Shown: in pieces, positions 3,416 through 63,468 of the stretch
Layout of the letters: the number at the start of each line of letters is the position of its first letter
How positions within the stretch are numbered: the stretch's first letter is position 1
Assembly: GCA_029007825.1 (NCBI GenBank)
Contig: JAQXIO010000029.1
Span: 144,481-208,480 of the forward strand
Direction: 5' to 3'
Length of the DNA: 64,000 bases
From: Bacteroidales bacterium
GTDB taxonomy: Bacteria > Bacteroidota > Bacteroidia > Bacteroidales > JAQXIO01
The notes under the pieces: generated by a model
Databases searched by the model: none
The model's input: the letters and a program-made list of their open reading frames with translations, nothing else
Told to the model about the DNA's origin: nothing
Program-made: the position numbers and the translations under genes

Positions 3416-6400
3416 ATGAAACATTTACTTAAAATGCGTGTAGCATTTTTGCTATGCCTGTTTGTCTCTTTGCCTATTGCGGCAGAGACATTTACCTCTG
3501 TTCAGGAGGGAGAGTTTAATGACGCGGCGACGTGGGGAGGATCGGGAGTTCCTACTCAGAACGACGACGTAATTGTAAATCATGTTCTTGCGTTAACGCA
3601 GGAGGATGCGGCTGTCAATGTGCATAATCTGACGATTTCGCAGGGTGCATCGTTGATTTATACCGATAAAAGTGTCCATATATATGGCGATTTGACGGTA
3701 CAGGGCAGTTTGATTTCTACAAAACAACAGAATACTAACTGGGACAAATCAAAATTCCAGGTTGACGGAGCAACGACGGTTGCAGCGGGAGCCGAGTTAT
3801 CGTTTGTAAGTCCGGGTAATCCCTGGATGGATGAGTGCTTTATGTTTAACGGAAATGTAGAAAACGGGGGAGTCATGTCTGCCGACAGAATCCGTGTTAA
3901 AGGAGATTTTAATAACCTGGCGGGGGCAACATTCATGACGGGTGCGCATGACGCTACCATTGACGGAGCTTTTGTAAATGCTGGAAGCTGTACTGTAAAC
4001 AATATTGTTACGGTGTTCGGCGATGTTACCAATTCAGGAACTTTGGCAGTGAAAAAAGTTAATTTCAAACAGAAATTTACGAATGCTGAAGGTGGCGATG
4101 TTACAACGACCGAAGGCTGGGACGGAAGAACATTCAACGGTGATATTCTGAATAACGGCCGTATGTATATGTATGGGGATGTTCATATTTATGCAAATGT
4201 TGAAAATAACGGTTTATTCCATCAGTATGGAGGCGGTTGGCGAGGAGTTTATTTTTATAACGACTGTACCGTAACCGGATCGGATACTCTCCGGGTTTCA
4301 AAGTTAAATATTTATCAGGAGAAGACGTTGATAAACCGGATTGCAGGAGAAAAAGGTATGATCTTTGCTGATGAAATCAATTCTTTTTATTTGGATAATG
4401 GCAGTATGATAGATAACGACCAGGCCGGAGAGGCTACGTTCGAGAATGAGGGTACTCTGGCGGTGAGGTCAAGTGCAATGAGCCAACGGGTTCAGGTGAA
4501 TATCCCGACTAATAAACCGAATACGTTGATTTATCTGGATGAGAATCTTAATATACCTGTAACTCACAGGGGGCAGGTATATGATACATTCTATAATTTG
4601 GTGTTGTTCAGAAATCAGAATAACGGAAACTGCCGATCACATAATATTACGGCTCCGGTAACGACAATTGGTGACTTAAGATTTGATATGCTTATACCTG
4701 CCAATGCATGCCAGACGTTTGAAATCAATGCCGATTTAACGATTGGCGGCGATCTGATTATTGCAAAGAACGCAGCAAACGTCAGGACGGCCACTGAGGG
4801 TGTGACGATCAATATCGGCGGAAAGTTGATAAACGAATACGAAGGTGATAATTATCCGAATTTTGCTCATGCGGGAACTTCGACTGTGAACTTTTTATCG
4901 GATGAAGAGGAGGTTTTTTTATCCAGTAACAATATGCGTTTCAGCAAGATTACATTCGAAGGTGCCGGAAATAAGTCTTTTGCCGTAGCAGAAGGTAAGA
5001 CTGTAACTGTAAACTATCCGGAAGATAATGTGCCGGCGATCAATATGGGGGAAAATACCCTTACGGTTACTGGTGGTACCTTGCGTTTGGAAAAGGCTAA
5101 TTCGGGGTTAAAGGGTAATTTTGTTGTAGATAATATTTATGTAAGCCAGGGAAAATTAGAAGGATCTCTCGTTGTAAATAAAGAGATGAGCATCGGTTCT
5201 AACTGGAATGCCGGCTTCGATATAAAGGGCGCTTCGTTAACAGTAGCCGGAAATTTTGTTGCTCCGAATACCAATAAGTGGGATCAGATTATAGTAGACA
5301 GAAATACGACGCTTACTATAACTGGTGAAGGTACATTTAACGAAGGTCGTTTGAGATTGGTCAGCGAAGGAAATAACGACGGGAATGTTGAGCTTAAGAA
5401 ATTCATTGTTGACCGGGATAATGTTTCGTTGCAGAATACTATGACTGTTATCGAAGAGTTGTGTATGAAGAGCGGTTCCGTATCGTTCACGTCGGAGAGC
5501 GGTTCGCTTAAATACGATCCGGCAGCGGTTCTTTGTTATGAGGGTACAGCCGAACAAACGACAGGAGCCGAATGGAGTGCGGCCGTTGCTAATGTGAAGA
5601 TTAATAATGCGGCAGGTGTTTTATTAAATGAATCTAAGACGATTTCCGGCGTATTGACGCTTCAGGATGGTGCTTTGAAACAGAATGGAAACGATCTGAA
5701 AGTTGCATCTGTTGCCGGTGAGGGCTTCGGTGCTGCCAAGATGGTCGATCTCGGTGGTAACAACTTTACCACGCCTGCGGGAAATAAGCTGATGCCTATC
5801 GGCAGTGAAGGGAAATATGCACCTGTTACGCTTAGCAATACGGCAGTGGAGACAGAAGGGGATATAACTTTATCGGTAAGTAATGAGGCTTATACCGATT
5901 TTGCATCCGAGAATGTCCGTCTTAACAAGCAATGGAATGTTTCCGGTACTGCAGCATTTACGGGGGATATGGTTTTCCAATACGATGCAGCCGATGTAAC
6001 CGGTGATATTTCGACCGGTAAGTTAGAGGCTTTTTATATTAGCGGCGATAATAAGACAAGTATCGGTCAGAGTACGGAAAATAAAATAACAACTCTGTAT
6101 AAGGGAGCCGGTATTTATACGGCACGTTTTATGGAGAATTATACGATATCCGTAAGTCATGGCCAGGCAGACAAGCAAAATGCTTATGAGGGGGAGACGA
6201 TTACTCTCACTCCGGAGCAACGTAATTATGAAGAACTCGACAAATGGGAGAGCGATGATGTTACAGTAGAGAATAACTCGTTTGTAATGCCGGCTAAGAA
6301 TGTTACGATTACGGGTATCTACAAATCATTTACTCCTGTCGATACAAAAGGATGGTTTGCCGATTTCGATACGCAGATGCCTGATAATTTTGCATCGGGT

Positions 6401-7810
6401 AAAGAGATTATCGATAATCCTGCTGCGGATGATGTTTTAGGTGCAGCTAAAGTTTACAAGATGAACAAGGGAGAAGGCAAATGGAAGAATTTCGTGATGG
6501 AATACCAGAAAACTGCTCCTGTTTCTATCGACGGGTACGATATACTGGAATTTTATGTGAAAGGAGAAGGTATTGATATGGACCGTTTATATGTTCAATA
6601 TACGGACGATCAAAATGTACAGAAAGAAATTAATTTCTTTGCTTCCGATTTTAAAAATCCGAGCGGTTGGAATAAAATCCAAATTCCGATGGACGGTACA
6701 TTAAAGAGTATTCGTGTCTTTTCTATTTTCCCGCAACCCGAGACAGAAGGGGCTGGAATTTATTACCTGGCAAATATCCGGGCTAAATACAGTATTTCTG
6801 CAACAGATTGCACAGCTTCCGTAACTGCCGCAAATGAAGGCGACGAAGTCGTTCTTACAGCCGGAGAGGCTCCCGAGGGCAAAGAGTTCGACAAATGGGA
6901 GATCACTGAGGGTGTAACAATAACGGATAACAAATTTGTTATGCCTGCTAAAAAAGTTTCTGTAAGCGCATTGTTTAAGAATGTCAATTATACGGTAGCC
7001 GTAACAGGCGGAACTGCCGATAAGGAGACCGCCACGATGGGTGAAACGGTGACGCTTACAGCCGGAGAGGCACCTGAAGGCGAAGAGTTCGATAAGTGGA
7101 CCAGCGAAGATGTTACGATTACGGATAACACCTTTACGATGCCAGCCAAGAACGTAACGGTTACAGCTACCTATAAGAAAATCAATTATACGGTTACGGT
7201 AACAGGCGGAACCGCCGATAAGGAGACCGCCACGATGGGTGAAACTGTAACGCTTACAGCGGGAGAGGCACCTGAAGGCGAAGAGTTCGATAAGTGGACC
7301 AGTGAAGATGTTACGATTACGGATAACACCTTTACGATGCCAGCCAAGAACGTGACGGTTACAGCTACCTATAAGAAAATCAATTATACCGTAACGGTAA
7401 CAGGTGGAACAGCGGATAAGGAAACTGCTACAATGGGAGAAACCGTAACGTTGACTCCTGATGTTCCCGAAGGATTGAAACTGATCGAATGGATTGTAAC
7501 AGAAGGGGATATTACGATTGAAAATAATACGTTCGTAATGCCGGCTTCCAATGTGGCTATCGAAGCCCGTTATAACGTAGGCGTTGACGGATCGGAAATC
7601 GAAACATTAACGATTTATCCTAACCCGGCAAGCGACTATATAAGGGTAACAGGTATCGAAAATGCAGAATACCGCGTTATCAGCCAGAACGGAGCTGTCG
7701 TGTTGAGTGGTGCCGATTATAACGGCGAACCGATCGACGTGTCTTCTCTTGCATCCGGAAATTATATCTTCCAGTCTGGAGAGATGACAAAAGTCTTTAT
7801 TAAGAAGTAA
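3416..7810 (+). CDS. Large T9SS type A-sorted surface protein: G8-like/beta-helical N-terminus, jelly-roll CBM-like module, six InlB B-repeat-like stalk domains, CTD
   Basis: ATG 3416 preferred to TTG 3389 (gives MKHLLKMRVAFLLCLFVSLPIAA signal peptide); 'FTSVQEGEFNDAATWGG..VPT.NDDV.VNH' start; repeats 'YTV.VTGG...GETVTLT....EF.KW...F.MPAKNVTV.A.Y'; CTD 'IYPNPASDYI...IDVSSLASGNYI...VFIKK'. Confidence 0.85.
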   Translation: MKHLLKMRVAFLLCLFVSLPIAAETFTSVQEGEFNDAATWGGSGVPTQNDDVIVNHVLALTQEDAAVNVHNLTISQGASLIYTDKSVHIYGDLTVQGSLISTKQQNTNWDKSKFQVDGATTVAAGAELSFVSPGNPWMDECFMFNGNVENGGVMSADRIRVKGDFNNLAGATFMTGAHDATIDGAFVNAGSCTVNNIVTVFGDVTNSGTLAVKKVNFKQKFTNAEGGDVTTTEGWDGRTFNGDILNNGRMYMYGDVHIYANVENNGLFHQYGGGWRGVYFYNDCTVTGSDTLRVSKLNIYQEKTLINRIAGEKGMIFADEINSFYLDNGSMIDNDQAGEATFENEGTLAVRSSAMSQRVQVNIPTNKPNTLIYLDENLNIPVTHRGQVYDTFYNLVLFRNQNNGNCRSHNITAPVTTIGDLRFDMLIPANACQTFEINADLTIGGDLIIAKNAANVRTATEGVTINIGGKLINEYEGDNYPNFAHAGTSTVNFLSDEEEVFLSSNNMRFSKITFEGAGNKSFAVAEGKTVTVNYPEDNVPAINMGENTLTVTGGTLRLEKANSGLKGNFVVDNIYVSQGKLEGSLVVNKEMSIGSNWNAGFDIKGASLTVAGNFVAPNTNKWDQIIVDRNTTLTITGEGTFNEGRLRLVSEGNNDGNVELKKFIVDRDNVSLQNTMTVIEELCMKSGSVSFTSESGSLKYDPAAVLCYEGTAEQTTGAEWSAAVANVKINNAAGVLLNESKTISGVLTLQDGALKQNGNDLKVASVAGEGFGAAKMVDLGGNNFTTPAGNKLMPIGSEGKYAPVTLSNTAVETEGDITLSVSNEAYTDFASENVRLNKQWNVSGTAAFTGDMVFQYDAADVTGDISTGKLEAFYISGDNKTSIGQSTENKITTLYKGAGIYTARFMENYTISVSHGQADKQNAYEGETITLTPEQRNYEELDKWESDDVTVENNSFVMPAKNVTITGIYKSFTPVDTKGWFADFDTQMPDNFASGKEIIDNPAADDVLGAAKVYKMNKGEGKWKNFVMEYQKTAPVSIDGYDILEFYVKGEGIDMDRLYVQYTDDQNVQKEINFFASDFKNPSGWNKIQIPMDGTLKSIRVFSIFPQPETEGAGIYYLANIRAKYSISATDCTASVTAANEGDEVVLTAGEAPEGKEFDKWEITEGVTITDNKFVMPAKKVSVSALFKNVNYTVAVTGGTADKETATMGETVTLTAGEAPEGEEFDKWTSEDVTITDNTFTMPAKNVTVTATYKKINYTVTVTGGTADKETATMGETVTLTAGEAPEGEEFDKWTSEDVTITDNTFTMPAKNVTVTATYKKINYTVTVTGGTADKETATMGETVTLTPDVPEGLKLIEWIVTEGDITIENNTFVMPASNVAIEARYNVGVDGSEIETLTIYPNPASDYIRVTGIENAEYRVISQNGAVVLSGADYNGEPIDVSSLASGNYIFQSGEMTKVFIKK
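6986..7452 (+). repeat. Intragenic tandem repeat, 198-bp (66-aa) unit, two full copies plus a conserved partial third
   Basis: Units start at 6986, 7184 and 7382 (198-bp period); copies 1 and 2 differ at 9 of 198 nt by manual alignment. Confidence 0.95.
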
Positions 7811-57542: not shown

Positions 57543-60500
57543 AGGGTACGACTTTTAAAATAGAGGCGAGAGAGTATCCGACCGACGAATATGAGATTTA
57601 TATAGGTGATGTTAACGGTGACGGAAAAGAGGATGTGATAGCTTGTTTTTTGAATAAGTCGGCGCTTAAGTTCGGCCTCTATTATAATATATATCTTTCT
57701 ACCGGGATGGGGTTTGAAAAGTACGATACCCTTGTAGATAATTATCCGTGGATACCGACTGAAAAATGGAAGAAATTAGTTTCGATTATCGATGCAGGCG
57801 GAACAGGAGTTGAAAAAATCTTATGGAAGGATATTGAGGCTCCTCATTTTACCGTAATCAAGCATCTTTTCCGTTATGATAATCCGAATTTATTTGTTAC
57901 CGATATAACTAACGGCCTGAACCAGAAAATAAGTTTCAGCTACCGGCCTTTGACTGACAGTCTGGTTTATACGAGAACGGCGAAGGTTACCTATCCTTTG
58001 GTCGGCAGTGCTTTCCCGCTTTATGTGGTGGCCAATATGCGATCTACGGATAATTTCGGAAAAATATTCTCGTCCCTTTCTTTCCAGTATCAGAATATCC
58101 GTACCCATATTCAAGGTAGAGGTTTTTTGGGTTTCGGAATGCTGTATATGCGTGATAGCCTCCTTATGCAGTCGCAGATAAAAGAGTACAGTATAGGCAA
58201 TGGTTACGATGTATACCTCTCGTCTGTTACGACGAATGCCATTAAAGCAGGCACGGAAATTCCAGTCTCTAAAATAACAAGTGAAACACTTTATCGCAAT
58301 TATGGAAATAACCGTTATTTCCCATTTGTGTATCAAGAGAAGAAGATCGATTATCTGCAGTCGTTAACCCAATCGACTACTTATGATTACGATACCGATC
58401 ACGGTAATATAAAACGCACGATAGAGCTGAGGGGGAATCTGCTTAAGACAACCGAATTTGTATGGGAGGCGAAAGACAATATTTTCAAAAACTGCCTTAC
58501 CGAGCGAAAAGAGACGCTTAGCGGCGGAGAGGGAAACGATTTTGTCACGGTTACGCGGTATAGCTATGATGCTAAGGGACGTTTATCGTCGCAGACCGAC
58601 TATTCCGGAACGGAGAAAGCCGTTACCGTTACGTATTCGGATTACGATGTTTTCGGCAATCCCCAGACCGAGACAAAAACGGCATCCGGCTGCGATGCGA
58701 TTGTTACCAAAAATTATTATGGCGATAAAGGCCGTTTCCTTGAGAAGTCGGAAGATGCCTTGGGTAATGAATCGGAGTATCAATACGATCATGCTACAGG
58801 CAATGTATTGAGAAAAGCCGGCAGCGATGGTTTGGTAACCGACTATACCTACGATAACTGGGGAAATGCTGTTTCCGAAATTACTCCGGGAGGACTTATT
58901 TCCACCTTTTCCCGTAAGTGGGATTTATCGGGTTCTGCTTATCCGCAGGCATTGTATACCGATATTGCCACATATACGGGTATAGAAGGTGCCGAGCGAA
59001 CCTGGTATGACGGCCAAGGACGAGAAATTGCGAGACATGTGCCCGGATTCGGGAATAATGCACAGGGTGCCGGCAAATATATAGTTATCCGCAAGTCGTA
59101 TTACGATAACGGTCGGTTGAAAAGTGAATCTTATCCTATTTTTTACGGAAACGGTGTTGCGGCCCCACTTACCGAATATACTTACGATGAGTTCGGCAGG
59201 GTTTTATCCAAGAACGATCGCGGTTTGGTAACCGGGTATACCTATATAACCGAAAACCGGGAAACGAAAACCACCTACCCCGATGGTACTACTTCGAAAA
59301 CGATACTGAACAGTGCGGGGCTTACACAATCGGTAACCGATGCTGCAGGGGGAAGCGTTACCTATACTTATAACAGTATGGGAAAACCCGTAACGGTTAC
59401 AGCAAACGGTATTGCTATGACCGTAGCCTATGATTACCGGGGGTATCGTGTTTCGTTGAAAGATCCCAATCAGACCGGAAATATATCTTATAATTACGAT
59501 GCTTACGGACGTTTGGCCAGTGAAACGAATGCCCGCGACAGCGTGACTTCTTACCAGTATGATGTGCTGGGACGTAAGATAAAGATGGTACGTGGCGGGG
59601 AAACCTTTGCTTACGAGTATGTAACATCCGGTAACGGGAAGGGGCAGTTGTCGACCGTCAAGAAGGGCAACAGTGTCGTGCGACGATATGAATACGATGC
59701 TTATGGTAATATAGTGACCGATACGGAGACTTTTGACGGGGTGCAATATGTGCGGCGATATGCTTATGACGATTGTCTGCGCATAAAAGAGAAGTGTACT
59801 CCTTCCGGATTGCAACTGGTTAATACGTACGATAAAGTAGGTTATCTGACCGAAATACGGAATAAGGAAGATAATGCTCTTATCTGGCGTATGGAGGGAA
59901 TGAACGCATCGGAACAGATTACACGGAGCACACAGGGGAACGGCCTGTCGCGCGTATCGGTGTTCGATTCGTACGATTATCTTTCCTCACTTACCCTCTA
60001 CGACGGCGATAAGGTGGTTGACCGGATGGTGCTGGCATTCGATTCCCTTACCGGCAACCTGAAAAGCCGGAACGATATTACGAACGGTCGTAACGAAGTG
60101 TTCGGCTATGATAACCTGAAGCGCCTGACTTCGATCCGGCTGAACAATGAGGGGATAAACTCAGTCGTATATGAATCGAACGGTAATATAGAGAGCAAAT
60201 ATAACGTAGGAAGCTACAAATATGAAAAAGACAGACCTCATGCCGTATCTTTCATAGAAAACCGGGTATCCGGATATAATCCATCCGACGTCACATTCAA
60301 GTATAATTCTTTCAACCGGGTGATAGAGATAAAGGAGCCCGGAGCGACGATGAAAAAGGCGCAGTTTGTTTACGGCTATGACAACGAGCGGAGGAAGATG
60401 CAGTATTATGAAAACGATGTGCTGAAAAGAACCCGCTATTATTTCGGAAACTATGAGAAAGAGACGGCAGGTTCCGTGACGCGGGAGTTCGATTATATCT

Positions 60501-61762
60501 ATTCGCCCGAAGGTCTTGTAGCCGTAGCCGATAAGACCGGATCCGCCCGGAAGATCCGGTATATTCATACCGACCATTTAGGCAGTATCCGGAGGATAAC
60601 GGATGCAACAAAACAGGTTCTGGCCCGTTATTACTACGATGCGTGGGGTGTCCGGACATTAGCTGAAGGAAGCGATGTAGAGACCAGAGGGTATACCGGG
60701 CACGAGCATCTGAGCGCATTCGGTCTGATCAATATGAATGCCCGTGTGTACGATCCGGTGCTGGCGCGTTTTCTCGGAATCGATCCGGTTGTGCAATTTC
60801 CCGATTTTACACAGAACTACAACGGATATGCCTACGGGTTGAATAACCCGCTGAGTTATATCGATCCCGAGGGTGAATCCGTGTTGCTCGCTTGTCTTAT
60901 TGCCGGCGGTGTAGCCGCGGGTTTAGGCGGTTTGCAAGGTTATCAGGTAGCAAAGGCAAAGGGCGCTACGGGATGGAAGATGTTCGGTTATATCTTAGGC
61001 GGCGGTCTGATAGGCGCCGGTTCGGCGGTGGCTTCCGTCTTTACCGCAGGTGCTGTGACCGGCCTTGTGGGCGGTGCGCTGGGTAGTGGCGCATTAGGTG
61101 GTGCAGTAAGCGGTGCAGCTAGCGGTGCCGTAGGCGGATTTTTATCGGGAACCGGTATGGGCTTCCTTGGTGGCGCGAAGGTAGGAGAAGCCTTTAAGAT
61201 GGGTGCGATCGGTATGGGCCTCGGCGCAGCCGGTGGAGCGGTTATAGGCGGAGTAGCACAGGGTGTTTCATCGATTAAGGGCGGCGGAGATTTCTGGAAA
61301 GGTATACGCCCCAAGTCGGATATAGTTATGCCTCATATAGAGGAGATAGAGAAGCCTATACAGAAGTTAGAAGCTATTAATCAGACTGTTGAGGTTGGAA
61401 CTATTGGTTCTGGAAATAGAGGAAATGCTTTATATCATTATACAACAGAAAAAGGATATAATGCAATTATGTCATCTAAAGAGATTTTACCTTCTATTGG
61501 AGAAAAAAATGCACGACATGGTTATGGCCAATATTTTACAGATATTAGTCCACAAGATTATACCGCTGGACAGGTTTCAAGGCGGCTATATCGAGTACCG
61601 TGGAATACAGAAAAGCTTAGATATTATATCAAGGTTGATTTAAATGGATTGGATGTTAGATACAATGGGCCTCATAATTATTTGGTTCCAGGAACAAATA
61701 GTTTACCGATAGAAAATAGAGTTGTTGATCATGGACTTTCTATATTTAAAATAAAATTTTAA
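57539..61762 (+). CDS. 3' part of the Rhs toxin precursor: FG-GAP, TcdB midN-like region, YD repeats, Rhs core, Gly/Ala-rich hydrophobic linker, C-terminal HYD1-type ADP-ribosyltransferase
   Basis: No signal peptide; 'GDVNGDG'; 'GRGFLGF'; many YD repeats; 'RGYTGHEH...NMNARVYDP..ARF..DP...Y.Y..NNP...IDPEG' core (DPEG at 60863-60874); tip 'LYHYTTEKG...GQYFTDI.P....GQVSRRLY.VPW'. Confidence 0.88.
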   Translation: MKGTTFKIEAREYPTDEYEIYIGDVNGDGKEDVIACFLNKSALKFGLYYNIYLSTGMGFEKYDTLVDNYPWIPTEKWKKLVSIIDAGGTGVEKILWKDIEAPHFTVIKHLFRYDNPNLFVTDITNGLNQKISFSYRPLTDSLVYTRTAKVTYPLVGSAFPLYVVANMRSTDNFGKIFSSLSFQYQNIRTHIQGRGFLGFGMLYMRDSLLMQSQIKEYSIGNGYDVYLSSVTTNAIKAGTEIPVSKITSETLYRNYGNNRYFPFVYQEKKIDYLQSLTQSTTYDYDTDHGNIKRTIELRGNLLKTTEFVWEAKDNIFKNCLTERKETLSGGEGNDFVTVTRYSYDAKGRLSSQTDYSGTEKAVTVTYSDYDVFGNPQTETKTASGCDAIVTKNYYGDKGRFLEKSEDALGNESEYQYDHATGNVLRKAGSDGLVTDYTYDNWGNAVSEITPGGLISTFSRKWDLSGSAYPQALYTDIATYTGIEGAERTWYDGQGREIARHVPGFGNNAQGAGKYIVIRKSYYDNGRLKSESYPIFYGNGVAAPLTEYTYDEFGRVLSKNDRGLVTGYTYITENRETKTTYPDGTTSKTILNSAGLTQSVTDAAGGSVTYTYNSMGKPVTVTANGIAMTVAYDYRGYRVSLKDPNQTGNISYNYDAYGRLASETNARDSVTSYQYDVLGRKIKMVRGGETFAYEYVTSGNGKGQLSTVKKGNSVVRRYEYDAYGNIVTDTETFDGVQYVRRYAYDDCLRIKEKCTPSGLQLVNTYDKVGYLTEIRNKEDNALIWRMEGMNASEQITRSTQGNGLSRVSVFDSYDYLSSLTLYDGDKVVDRMVLAFDSLTGNLKSRNDITNGRNEVFGYDNLKRLTSIRLNNEGINSVVYESNGNIESKYNVGSYKYEKDRPHAVSFIENRVSGYNPSDVTFKYNSFNRVIEIKEPGATMKKAQFVYGYDNERRKMQYYENDVLKRTRYYFGNYEKETAGSVTREFDYIYSPEGLVAVADKTGSARKIRYIHTDHLGSIRRITDATKQVLARYYYDAWGVRTLAEGSDVETRGYTGHEHLSAFGLINMNARVYDPVLARFLGIDPVVQFPDFTQNYNGYAYGLNNPLSYIDPEGESVLLACLIAGGVAAGLGGLQGYQVAKAKGATGWKMFGYILGGGLIGAGSAVASVFTAGAVTGLVGGALGSGALGGAVSGAASGAVGGFLSGTGMGFLGGAKVGEAFKMGAIGMGLGAAGGAVIGGVAQGVSSIKGGGDFWKGIRPKSDIVMPHIEEIEKPIQKLEAINQTVEVGTIGSGNRGNALYHYTTEKGYNAIMSSKEILPSIGEKNARHGYGQYFTDISPQDYTAGQVSRRLYRVPWNTEKLRYYIKVDLNGLDVRYNGPHNYLVPGTNSLPIENRVVDHGLSIFKIKF

Positions 61763-61771
61763 TCAAGTAAG

Positions 61772-62017
61772 ATGGAAGAAAAATATATAAAGAAATATTG
61801 GGAGGAAGAGGATATCCTGTTCTATTTACATTTTCGGGATGACTTTGCCGTAAGGCAGATAGAAGAGTCGTCAAAGGGGAGAATCTATTTATCGGAAGAA
61901 AGACCGGTTATAGGAGAGTATATGCTCTATGACCAACGGTTGAGCGATCTGGATTTAACGGAAACAGATTTTATAACGGAACAGGAATTTGAAAAGGAAT
62001 GGAAAAAAGAAAAATAA
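61772..62017 (+). CDS. Putative cognate immunity protein (small, acidic)
   Basis: 81 aa, very Glu/Asp-rich, starts 9 nt after the toxin stop, same AT-rich composition as the toxin tip. Confidence 0.7.
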   Translation: MEEKYIKKYWEEEDILFYLHFRDDFAVRQIEESSKGRIYLSEERPVIGEYMLYDQRLSDLDLTETDFITEQEFEKEWKKEK

Positions 62018-62021
62018 GGTT

Positions 62022-62480
62022 ATGATTCAATATATAGAGTATGGCGATATTTTTAATTTAGAGTCGGTTAACAGTTATGCACATGGTTGTAATTGCGCCG
62101 GGGCGATGGGAAAAGGAATCGCATTACAGTTCAGAAACAGGTTTCCAAAGATGTATTGTGAATATAAGGAGTTGTGTAAAAATGGAGATTTTAATTTAGG
62201 GGATATCTTTGTTTATAATTATGGAAACGGTTATGTTTTTAACCTCGGAACACAAAAATCGTGGAAAAGTAAAGCAGAAATTAGCGCTATAGAGCAATCA
62301 TTAAAGAAAATGCTTTTATATGCACAGGGAAAAAGTATAAAACAAATAGCCTTACCTAAAATAGGCGCGGGATTAGGGGGATTGGAATGGGATGAAGTGA
62401 AAGAAGTTATGGAAGAAGTTTCGTCTGAATATCCCGGCGTTCGGCTTGTGATTGTGATGAATTATAAAAAAGAGATATGA
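62022..62480 (+). CDS. Macrodomain protein (DarG/TARG1-like ADP-ribose-processing fold)
   Basis: ATG 62022; 'GDIF', 'HGCNCAGAMGKGIALQFRNRFP', 'FNLGTQ', 'IALPKIGAGLGGLEW'. Confidence 0.9.
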   Translation: MIQYIEYGDIFNLESVNSYAHGCNCAGAMGKGIALQFRNRFPKMYCEYKELCKNGDFNLGDIFVYNYGNGYVFNLGTQKSWKSKAEISAIEQSLKKMLLYAQGKSIKQIALPKIGAGLGGLEWDEVKEVMEEVSSEYPGVRLVIVMNYKKEI

Positions 62481-62569: not shown

Positions 62570-62947
62570 ATGTCAGAAAAGTTTTATAATACACTTGTCC
62601 AGAGTCTCCGGCTCGTAGCTTCGCCGGCAGATATACAGATAAAGTCTTTGCCTGATTTTGTCTGTATTGCTGATGAAATAGCTTTGACTTATGACGAGAC
62701 TTATGTCCTTCTTCCGCAAATAGCGGAAGAAGATAAACGCTTTACCCCTCAGGTTATGGAGACATTGAAAGAACTCGATCGTCTGTTCGGAGAAATGTCG
62801 GAAGATAAAACGTTATGGGACATCGATCAATTAAAGGAAAATCTTAAGTGGGAGAAAAGCCGTCTGCTGGCTTACGAAGCATTGCAATTATTAGGGGAGC
62901 CATATGAGTTTCCCGATTTGGGCTATATAAGTTATGTGCGAGGGTAA
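62570..62947 (+). CDS. Hypothetical acidic protein, candidate orphan immunity protein
   Basis: 125 aa, cytoplasmic, acidic, in the post-toxin array. Confidence 0.55.
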   Translation: MSEKFYNTLVQSLRLVASPADIQIKSLPDFVCIADEIALTYDETYVLLPQIAEEDKRFTPQVMETLKELDRLFGEMSEDKTLWDIDQLKENLKWEKSRLLAYEALQLLGEPYEFPDLGYISYVRG

Positions 62948-63468
62948 ATTAATTAAATCTAATTTAATTAACTATCTTGACTGAAGTAAGTAAATTGGTT
63001 CCGAATAATCTTACTAAATATATGATTACTGATGAGATTTTAAAGATTATTACTGGCACGATGCAGTAATGAAAAAATATTACTATAAGACCGGAGTAAT
63101 TTGGGGCATGTAGATGAGATTTAAATGGCTCTAAAGTAGAAGTTCATTATTTTTATAATGCTTCCTACTAAGCAATATGTAAACCTGTTTATAAAAATGG
63201 GAGAATGGGACTCAAAAGCTTTTAAAGGGTTAAAATGAAAAAGAGATGAAAATAGAAATCTTAGAAGAACGAATTGATACTTTTTAGAATCATTTGTTTA
63301 AGAGTATTGATTTAAGAAAGTAAGAAGCTATAATGACAGAGCGTCTGCATTAACCTTATGAATCCTCTTAGCGGGGGCATAAAGAATTTTCAAAATGCCC
63401 ATCAGTTTTTGAGATTCTATTAAAATAAACAGCAGGTCATGTTATAGATTAAAATAAAAATCGGATCG

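Follow-up and report, generated by a model that had tools for sequence, protein, structure and literature searches.

Why should a single toxin domain be followed by two further genes, one for a small acidic protein and one for a macrodomain? This question is raised by a locus in the last part of a 64,000-nucleotide stretch of DNA from a Bacteroidales bacterium (GenBank assembly GCA_029007825.1, contig JAQXIO010000029.1, positions 144,481 to 208,480), in the following called the window and counted from its first nucleotide. A large RHS protein ends there in a domain of the Tox-ART-HYD1 family of ADP-ribosyltransferase (ART) toxins, and the genes for the small protein and the macrodomain follow on the same strand. 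The reading put forward here, which we hold to be fairly probable, is that of a three-gene polymorphic-toxin cassette on an RHS protein with a two-tier immunity, in which the small protein would block the toxin and the macrodomain would reverse its modification enzymatically. The first-pass annotation of the window had described the toxin tip, the small open reading frame (ORF) and the macrodomain as nearly contiguous, and so they are: 9 nucleotides (nt) lie between the stop codon of the RHS gene and the ORF of 81 amino acids (aa), and 4 nt between the stop codon of the latter and the ATG of the macrodomain gene at 62022. The G+C content is 45-59% in the body of the RHS gene and 31-38% from about 61350 on, and it stays low across toxin tip, small ORF and macrodomain gene alike; because the low G+C content spans all three, they look like one acquired cassette.

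The toxin domain with its C-terminal tail and the stop codon occupies 61430..61762 on the forward strand. It had been called a HYD1-type ART tip, and the profile of Tox-ART-HYD1 (Pfam PF15633) bears this out with 88.7 bits against a cut-off of 25 (E 4e-25; aa 1298-1394, nt 61430-61720, profile positions 1-96 of 97). The sequences LYHYT and GQYFTDI represent the conserved H-Y and Y motifs of the tip. Histidine (in LYHYT), arginine (in NAR), tyrosine (in GQY) and aspartate (in TD) are invariant in 13 of 13 aligned tips, and the acidic residue of the I-x-x-[DE] strand is D. These four residues agree with the published signature of Tox-ART-HYD1, which consists of H, [RK], [FY] and [DE] (Zhang 2012; PMC3482391), and judged by them the HYD1 domain looks catalytically intact. 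The position of the tip, C-terminal to the RHS-associated core and with an immunity gene 9 nt downstream, is the typical arrangement of a polymorphic toxin. Tre23 of Photorhabdus laumondii, which has been assigned to PF15633, ADP-ribosylates helix 44 of the 23S rRNA (PMC8661411), and for YarT, a member of the same subclade, guanine was inferred as the modified base (PMC11125620). Neither the tip alone nor a profile of the 13 tip sequences matched any chain of the Protein Data Bank (PDB), and because the tip lacks detectable similarity to solved structures the target of Tre23 is not transferable to it.

The second gene (61772..62017, forward strand) encodes the acidic 81-aa protein with 23 Asp/Glu against 13 Lys/Arg. 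It had been taken for a small immunity gene, and the protein is indeed a member of the Imm-My6CBD family with the fold of the myosin-VI cargo-binding domain (CBD). The sole Pfam match of the single sequence, Myosin-VI_CBD (PF16521), is weak (E 0.014; 15.9 bits against a cut-off of 25.8). The same Pfam model matches 14 of the 29 aligned family members, and the profile of the family in turn finds three PDB chains of the myosin VI CBD, with a best E of 9e-4. In addition, the top eight fold matches of an AlphaFold2 model (predicted local distance difference test, pLDDT, 95.6) are all myosin VI CBD structures, with template modelling (TM) scores of 0.59-0.74. The conserved positions R-Q-I-E, F73 and W77 fit the published signature of E, R, F and W, and the protein is 53-58% identical to the products of genes that follow HYD1 tips in other genomes. 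Imm-My6CBD is the listed immunity protein of Tox-ART-HYD1, and the pairing of toxin and small protein is thus already known (Zhang 2012; PMC3482391). By analogy the 81-aa protein is predicted to be a stoichiometric inhibitor of the toxin. A related observation concerns plasmids, on which the immunity partner of HYD1 tips without a macrodomain (loci L149-L153) matches Pfam DUF6881 with a best E of 4e-35. This family was joined to Imm-My6CBD by iterated searches and appears to be a branch of the same immunity family.

The third gene (62022..62480, forward strand) encodes a stand-alone macrodomain of 152 aa that belongs to the ALC1/TARG1/DarG class. Its first-pass identification as a macrodomain is confirmed by the Pfam profile Macro (E 1.6e-17), and the ATG at 62022 is preferred as start codon since the resulting N-terminus MIQYIEYGD agrees with MVTYIE.G of the homologues. 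Among solved structures it matches DarG best (E 3e-26 and 4.5e-25), followed by TARG1 (2e-11), BT1257 (9e-8) and SCO6735 (4.5e-6), and its AlphaFold2 model (pLDDT 87) has a TM score of 0.85 to DarG with bound ADP-ribose. The NCBIfam model of DarG (NF048014) is matched with E 6e-37 and 127.6 bits, which is below its cut-off of 250, and over profile positions 5-145 of 338 only. Membership in DarG itself was considered and ruled out by the glutamine in place of the lysine, by the length of 152 aa without the DarT-binding C-terminal domain and by the partner, which is HYD1 and not DarT.

This glutamine lies in the active site. The first-pass annotation had pointed to 'GTQK' where DarG has 'PTKK', and the remark was accurate: FNFPTKKHW of DarG aligns with FNLGTQKSW, which places Gln78 at the position of K80 of DarG (T. 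aquaticus) and K84 of TARG1. The position of TARG1 D125 is held by Gly. Where TARG1 has the pattern T-K-x(30-35)-P-x-[IL]-G-x-G-x-D with the K84/D125 dyad (PMC6397177), the macrodomain reads T-Q ... P-K-I-G-A-G-L-G. An alignment of 20 homologues shows that the NLGTQ motif is invariant in the subfamily, as are His21, Asn24, Gln78 and G117-G120 of the GAGLGG loop, which correspond to His24, Asn27, Gln85 and the glycine loop of SCO6735. The latter, with Gln85 at the lysine position, is an active and fast hydrolase which loses its activity in the variants Q85A and Q85E (PMC9411070), and it cleaves ADP-ribose linked to thymine (DNA), uracil (RNA) and glutamate (protein) (PMC9411070; PMC13036486). 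On the basis of these residues the macrodomain is predicted to be an ADP-ribosyl hydrolase that serves as a second layer of immunity. By sequence, its subfamily is a separate DarG-like branch that carries glutamine and does not belong to SCO6735/BT1257 proper.

How closely the macrodomain is tied to the toxin can be judged from other genomes. Among 401 genomes drawn evenly from the phylum, with a threshold of E <= 1e-30 for the macrodomain subfamily, PF15633 occurs in only two, that of the window and one other (G027). The subfamily occurs in the same two genomes and is adjacent to the tip in both. In G027 the tip and the Imm gene are followed by the macrodomain gene on the opposite strand; its Imm protein is 58% and its macrodomain 59% identical to those of the window. 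A genome scan seeded with the macrodomain gave 79 loci; an Imm homologue is the immediate neighbour in 26 of them, and in 14 there is a HYD1 tip as well. In a metagenome-assembled genome (MAG) of the Saprospiraceae (L001) tip, Imm and macrodomain are 54%, 53% and 67% identical to those of the window, and the tip is found on a different carrier of 580 aa. A second scan, seeded with the tip and run on metagenomes, gave 61 loci, which were reduced to 44 informative ones by the removal of duplicates and of loci short of downstream DNA. A macrodomain lies within about 400 bp of the tip in 39 of these 44, and an Imm gene beside the tip in 36. The Pfam cut-off of HYD1 was exceeded by all 10 toxin ORFs scanned from the tip-seeded loci, most of which have RHS carriers, and their G+C content ranges from 38 to 71%. 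The adjacency of tip and macrodomain is far beyond chance.

In a tree of the tips the loci linked to a macrodomain fall into several deep HYD1 clades, one of them with a MAG of the Verrucomicrobiaceae. Four gene orders occur, namely tip-Imm-macrodomain, the same order with a reversed macrodomain gene, tip-macrodomain-Imm (L099, L103, L107) and tip-macrodomain (L102), where the gap is too short for an Imm gene. In three loci (L069, L074, L085) Imm and macrodomain are joined in one ORF of about 235 aa without an internal start. Furthermore, two macrodomain lineages separated by a very long branch stand beside HYD1 tips, the DarG-like one with the NLGTQ motif and a SCO6735/BT1257-like one with GQHG. 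Macrodomains of the GQHG type (L126, L128, L132-134, L140-143) belong to the BT1257/SCO6735 family (E 8e-42, to BT1257, and 3e-39). The variable order, the fusions and the presence of two lineages which both keep the glutamine suggest that the genes are coupled in function and do not simply share a site of insertion. What the analysis shows is which domains the three genes encode, that their linkage is conserved, that fusions occur and that the residues of the active site are kept. One further locus on a metagenome contig of 71% G+C (L137, 3336-4603) comprises a stand-alone HYD1 ORF of 172 aa without a carrier domain, an Imm gene and a SCO6735-like macrodomain; by its gene content it resembles an intracellular toxin-antitoxin module more closely than a delivered toxin.

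The protective genes are also found where the toxin is broken or missing. The tips of L074, L111/L112 and L142 are frameshifted while Imm and macrodomain stay open, and pairs of Imm and macrodomain occur without a tip (e.g. L014, L016, L021, L059, L061, L063, L067), with two such pairs in Chryseobacterium oleae (L043). In the macrodomain tree the copies from cassettes, from pairs and from single genes are interleaved with at least 13 changes of state, and some lone macrodomains are near-identical to copies from cassettes (L058 to L102, L075 to L078, L066 to L063 to L088). Some lone genes adjoin a tyrosine recombinase and an ankyrin gene in L034, an Imm11 gene in L081 and DUF4304 genes in L075, and from their gene content these surroundings look like arrays of acquired immunity genes. 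In the first of them, from Phocaeicola vulgatus (L034, 2845-8206), the order is tyrosine recombinase, macrodomain, ankyrin-repeat gene, and a second macrodomain of the same subfamily follows 3.7 kb further on. Lone macrodomains in such arrays would be consistent with the cross-protection against other ART toxins that the first-pass annotation had thought possible. That lone macrodomains are housekeeping genes was rejected as a general explanation, since the subfamily is present in only two of the 401 evenly drawn genomes. The proposal of the first-pass annotation that the macrodomain belongs to the immunity of the toxin is strongly favoured by its linkage across gene orders, carriers and a G+C range of 38-71%, by the fusions with Imm and by the pairs that outlast the toxin.

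The following course of events would fit the cassette. Tip, Imm and macrodomain would have been gained as one low-G+C unit at the end of an RHS delivery protein, whose shell would carry HYD1, a presumed NAD+-dependent ADP-ribosyltransferase, into neighbouring bacteria. In the producer, Imm-My6CBD would bind the toxin one-to-one and block it, by analogy with Tri23 and in keeping with the published family assignment. The macrodomain would hydrolyse ADP-ribose that has been put on the target by toxin which escaped this block or by incoming toxin of kin, as do, by analogy, the macrodomain half of DarG and Tri1. Its mechanism would probably be water-mediated and glutamine-dependent as in SCO6735, and not the lysine mechanism of TARG1 and DarG. 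As the point of attack of such an enzyme is the adduct and not the surface of the toxin, the HYD1 allele should make no difference to its action, and this would explain the spread of Imm-macrodomain pairs and of lone macrodomains without a toxin. The transferase activity of the tip, the nature of its target, the hydrolase activity of the macrodomain and the protection it would give are what we infer from the comparisons above.

Several observations weigh against this two-tier reading or narrow its range. The peptide patterns used in the tip-seeded scan were derived from tips that had been found through a macrodomain, and the scan may over-sample those HYD1 toxins that are linked to a macrodomain. 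The plasmids, a collection dominated by Proteobacteria and free of this bias, gave 10 matching records in a tblastn search. Five of them were examined (from Klebsiella, Paraburkholderia, Ralstonia, Aliiroseovarius and Microvirga), and in all five a tip and an Imm gene of the DUF6881 type are present and no macrodomain lies within 3 kb. Tri23 binds Tre23 and neutralises it without reversing the modification (PMC8661411). Taken together, the plasmid loci and the binding-only Tri23 make the macrodomain dispensable for at least some HYD1 toxins; in view of the five loci its presence depends on the lineage, and it does not accompany HYD1 universally. The chemistry of the adduct matters as well. SCO6735, a macrodomain of the TARG1 type, left the ADP-ribosylation of RNA at the 2'-OH by RhsP2 unreversed (PMC11833690), and if the HYD1 toxin makes the same linkage, the macrodomain would, by analogy, not reverse it. 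Finally, about 50 of the 79 macrodomain-seeded loci are without Imm or tip, and some of these genes lie beside housekeeping or KilA-N genes. As some lone macrodomains have such ordinary or KilA-N neighbours a second role is conceivable, and the family may have another function too. Macrodomains of the same subfamily in Muribaculaceae (L003-L006, at 5183-5992; L015, L020, L026, L029, L040 and L044, at about 6180-6990) have neither toxin nor Imm; a conserved gene for a KilA-N domain protein of 267-271 aa lies 8-12 bp upstream, a recurrent pair without obvious link to ADP-ribosylation.

If the macrodomain works together with the toxin, its substrate need not be the modified target. It could protect the producer in another way, by clearing by-products of a leaky, NAD+-consuming toxin such as free or esterified ADP-ribose, or by removing self-modification of toxin or Imm before export, as a step of toxin maturation or housekeeping. 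Macrodomains of the ALC1 class also hydrolyse O-acyl-ADP-ribose and molecules of the ADP-ribose-1''-phosphate type (PMC6397177), the PDB matches include Poa1p and TARG1, and the linkage data speak for co-function and not for a particular substrate. However, pairs of Imm and macrodomain and lone macrodomains have spread without the toxin gene, some of them into immunity arrays, which fits a defence against incoming toxin better than a maturation of the cell's own, and the Imm-macrodomain fusions resemble DarG, in which binding and erasing modules are directed against the same toxin system. We therefore regard the clearance of by-products as rather unlikely.

The division of labour between the two downstream genes could also be the reverse of the one proposed. 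The macrodomain would then be the main and sufficient immunity and the 81-aa protein an accessory, for example one which, as chaperone or adaptor, prevents the tip from folding or acting within the RHS shell. Locus L102 (duplicate L104), with an intact tip, a macrodomain 107 bp further on and no detectable Imm gene, would suit this arrangement, and so would the three loci in which the macrodomain comes before Imm. On the other hand, a homologous Imm is the only partner of the tip in the proteobacterial loci, the family has been assigned as immunity of HYD1 (Zhang 2012), and Tri23 binds and neutralises Tre23 (PMC8661411), although a membership of Tri23 in the Imm family is not implied. An accessory role of the small protein is accordingly an unlikely one.

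The replacement of the catalytic lysine had led the first-pass annotation to suggest either an altered chemistry or a binding-only role of the macrodomain. In the second case the domain would be a non-catalytic ADP-ribose binder which sequesters or shields the modified target or senses the modification, as might be expected when Gln78 replaces K80 of DarG and K84 of TARG1 and Gly replaces D125 of TARG1. The conservation of the site argues otherwise. Among 113 non-identical macrodomains of the fetched loci (46 from full cassettes, 13 from Imm-macrodomain pairs, 54 alone) 111 carry Gln and two carry Glu at the lysine site, and both lineages keep this residue alongside the His, Asn and glycine-loop residues. 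SCO6735 also speaks against a mere binder, since this protein has the same set of residues, is a fast hydrolase and needs its Gln85 (PMC9411070). Moreover, one reader per modified ribosome would be a poor protection. The altered chemistry is thus supported, while the binding-only role is very improbable. That the macrodomain is an unrelated accessory gene at a hot spot for toxin cassettes, or was merely co-transferred, would agree with its many copies in other contexts (beside genes for a tRNA synthetase, a signal peptidase, a TonB receptor or KilA-N proteins), but can practically be dismissed, as the pairing survives changes of gene order and strand, is seen on carriers with and without RHS and spans 38-71% G+C, Imm and macrodomain are fused in some loci, two different lineages have been recruited, and the co-occurrence in the 401-genome sample is exact.

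A wider claim may be attached to the two-tier reading. Rhs systems such as Tre23 and RhsP2 have been called inherently irreversible (PMC11125620), and the gene content of the cassette calls this label into question. It is conceivable, though rather less than an even bet, that HYD1 Rhs toxins are reversible in this sense, a travelling glutamine-type macrodomain erasing the adduct and thereby predicting its linkage, and that the lone macrodomain acts as a universal antidote. A linkage could be predicted from the partner because macrodomains of this class act on N3 of thymine and uracil, on acidic residues and on phosphate ends and not on the 2'-OH, guanine being the domain of NADAR. For Tre23 the linkage is stated to be still unknown (PMC11833690).

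Among the systems described so far, Tre23/Tri23 from the Rhs protein Plu0353 of Photorhabdus laumondii (PMC8661411) resembles the cassette in its PF15633 tip, in the small immunity gene immediately behind it and in the H-Y residues. However, Tri23 acts by binding only and a macrodomain is not described there, whereas the present cassette adds one and is carried by a signal-peptide SpvB/RHS pair in a genome of the Bacteroidota. SCO6735 of Streptomyces coelicolor and BT1257 (PDB 5e3b, 2fg1; PMC9411070) share the Gln at the lysine position, the His, the Asn and the glycine loop with the macrodomain of the window. In contrast to the latter, SCO6735 is an orphan gene induced by DNA damage and has no known cognate toxin, and the macrodomain of the window is nearer to DarG (3e-26 against 4.5e-6). 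DarT/DarG (PDB 5m31, 5m3e, 5m3i), which is concerned with the ADP-ribosylation of thymidine in DNA, provides the closest solved macrodomain and a combination of binding module and eraser against one ART; this two-module antidote is recreated by the Imm-macrodomain fusions. Yet DarT/DarG is an intracellular toxin-antitoxin pair with Lys80 and DarT, whereas the cassette, judged by its genes, is interbacterial and has glutamine and a HYD1 domain on a secreted RHS protein.

Tri1, the immunity protein of Tre1, is an ARH-fold hydrolase that acts on arginine-linked ADP-ribose. The Tre1/Tri1 pair of Serratia proteamaculans (PMC8661411; PMC9825190; PMC6397177) resembles the proposed two-tier immunity in that a T6SS (type VI secretion system) ART is both blocked and enzymatically reversed, Tri1 being an ADP-ribosyl hydrolase that protects FtsZ. 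There, however, both functions reside in one protein, whereas the cassette usually has two genes, a macrodomain as eraser and a toxin of the H-Y type. In the myxobacterial YarT/YbiA (PMC11125620) an ART of the HYD1 class is likewise paired with an ADP-ribosyl hydrolase that rescues its toxicity, but this is a stand-alone intracellular toxin-antitoxin system with a guanine-specific NADAR in place of a macrodomain and without a binding immunity protein. Finally, bacterial PARG was introduced as an 'immunity enzyme' of the macrodomain fold against RhsP2, an RNA-targeting Rhs ART (PMC11833690). That combination is heterologous (a Pseudomonas toxin and a Streptomyces or Deinococcus PARG), unlinked, of the PARG type and concerned with the 2'-OH, whereas the cassette encodes its own eraser. 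The nearest hint in the literature comes from Fusobacterium, in which a gene for TARG1 and one for Imm51 are neighbours (PMC6397177).

A full-text search of the literature found no description of a cassette of HYD1, Imm-My6CBD and macrodomain. Known already are the pair of toxin and Imm and, as cases of enzymatic immunity, Tre1/Tri1, DarT/DarG (with a macrodomain) and YarT/YbiA (with NADAR). For Rhs-delivered ARTs that modify nucleic acids the searched literature describes binding immunity proteins only, and a macrodomain as 'immunity enzyme' has been shown only with the heterologous PARG (PMC11833690). The cassette offers a natural two-layer immunity system to dissect, of interest to the fields of ADP-ribosylation and of interbacterial antagonism, and its predicted cognate hydrolase could serve as a probe for linkage and target of HYD1 toxins. 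The macrodomains would also represent a second, independent family of glutamine-type hydrolases, a point of relevance to the unresolved mechanism of SCO6735. In addition, they are candidates for an orphan immunity that does not depend on the toxin allele, which matters for the resistance of gut Bacteroidales to one another's weapons. If the wider claim is true, the lone macrodomain would be a horizontally spreading, allele-independent universal antidote to the whole toxin family, and the Bacteroidota of gut and soil would have in it an orphan immunity of a new class.

The delivery protein itself is encoded by two genes on the forward strand. The upstream one (55560..57542) codes for a secreted SpvB/FG-GAP protein of 660 aa with a match to Pfam SpvB (E 5.6e-17), FG-GAP repeats and a signal-like sequence at the N-terminus; it probably makes up the N-terminal half of the delivery shell, in the manner of TcB. 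The second gene is that of the RHS toxin protein (57539..61762; 1407 aa), which consists of RHS repeats, the RHS-associated core and the C-terminal Tox-ART-HYD1 domain. Its shell of RHS/YD repeats including the core covers aa 1-1112 (57539..60874, forward strand) and is recognised by Pfam RHS_repeat (E 1e-32) and by the NCBIfam models YD_repeat and Rhs_assc_core, the latter at aa 1033-1112. The boundary of the core at aa 1112 reads ...NPLSYIDPEGES and is cited also as YIDPEGES. Where the first gene stops and the second starts, the two share 4 nt (ATGA), and because of this overlap the Tc-toxin-like shell is, by its gene arrangement, made of two translationally coupled halves. A scan of the domains of both proteins showed neither PAAR nor a T6SS domain of the VgrG type.

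Between the RHS core and the toxin domain lies a linker (60875..61429, forward strand), delimited by the ORF translation and the base composition. It begins with a hydrophobic, Gly/Ala-rich stretch of about 130 aa that resembles a glycine zipper (60875-61290; 57-59% G+C), and a short spacer of low G+C content follows. A similar linker is found upstream of the HYD1 tip in the metagenome locus L102. The glycine-zipper-like part may be a segment for membrane entry or translocation of the released tip.

Downstream of the macrodomain gene an ORF of 125 aa (62570-62947) was considered as a fourth member of the cassette and rejected, as it has no match in Pfam or NCBIfam and no homologue in the loci L001-L085. 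An ORF of 125 aa that follows the macrodomain gene in Muribaculaceae agrees with it in length by coincidence (E 0.006 over 28 aa). The ORF of the window may encode an unrelated orphan immunity protein, or it may not be a gene at all. Around the three cassette genes a scan for sigma-70 promoters and intrinsic terminators, which excludes the promoter types of Bacteroidota, gave no signal above the shuffled background, and among public RNA sequencing runs none was found to contain this DNA. Behind the 125-aa ORF follows a very AT-rich stretch of about 500 bp (62950-63468; 28-33% G+C), without an ORF of 40 aa or more, which extends to the next gene and may mark the end of the acquired region.

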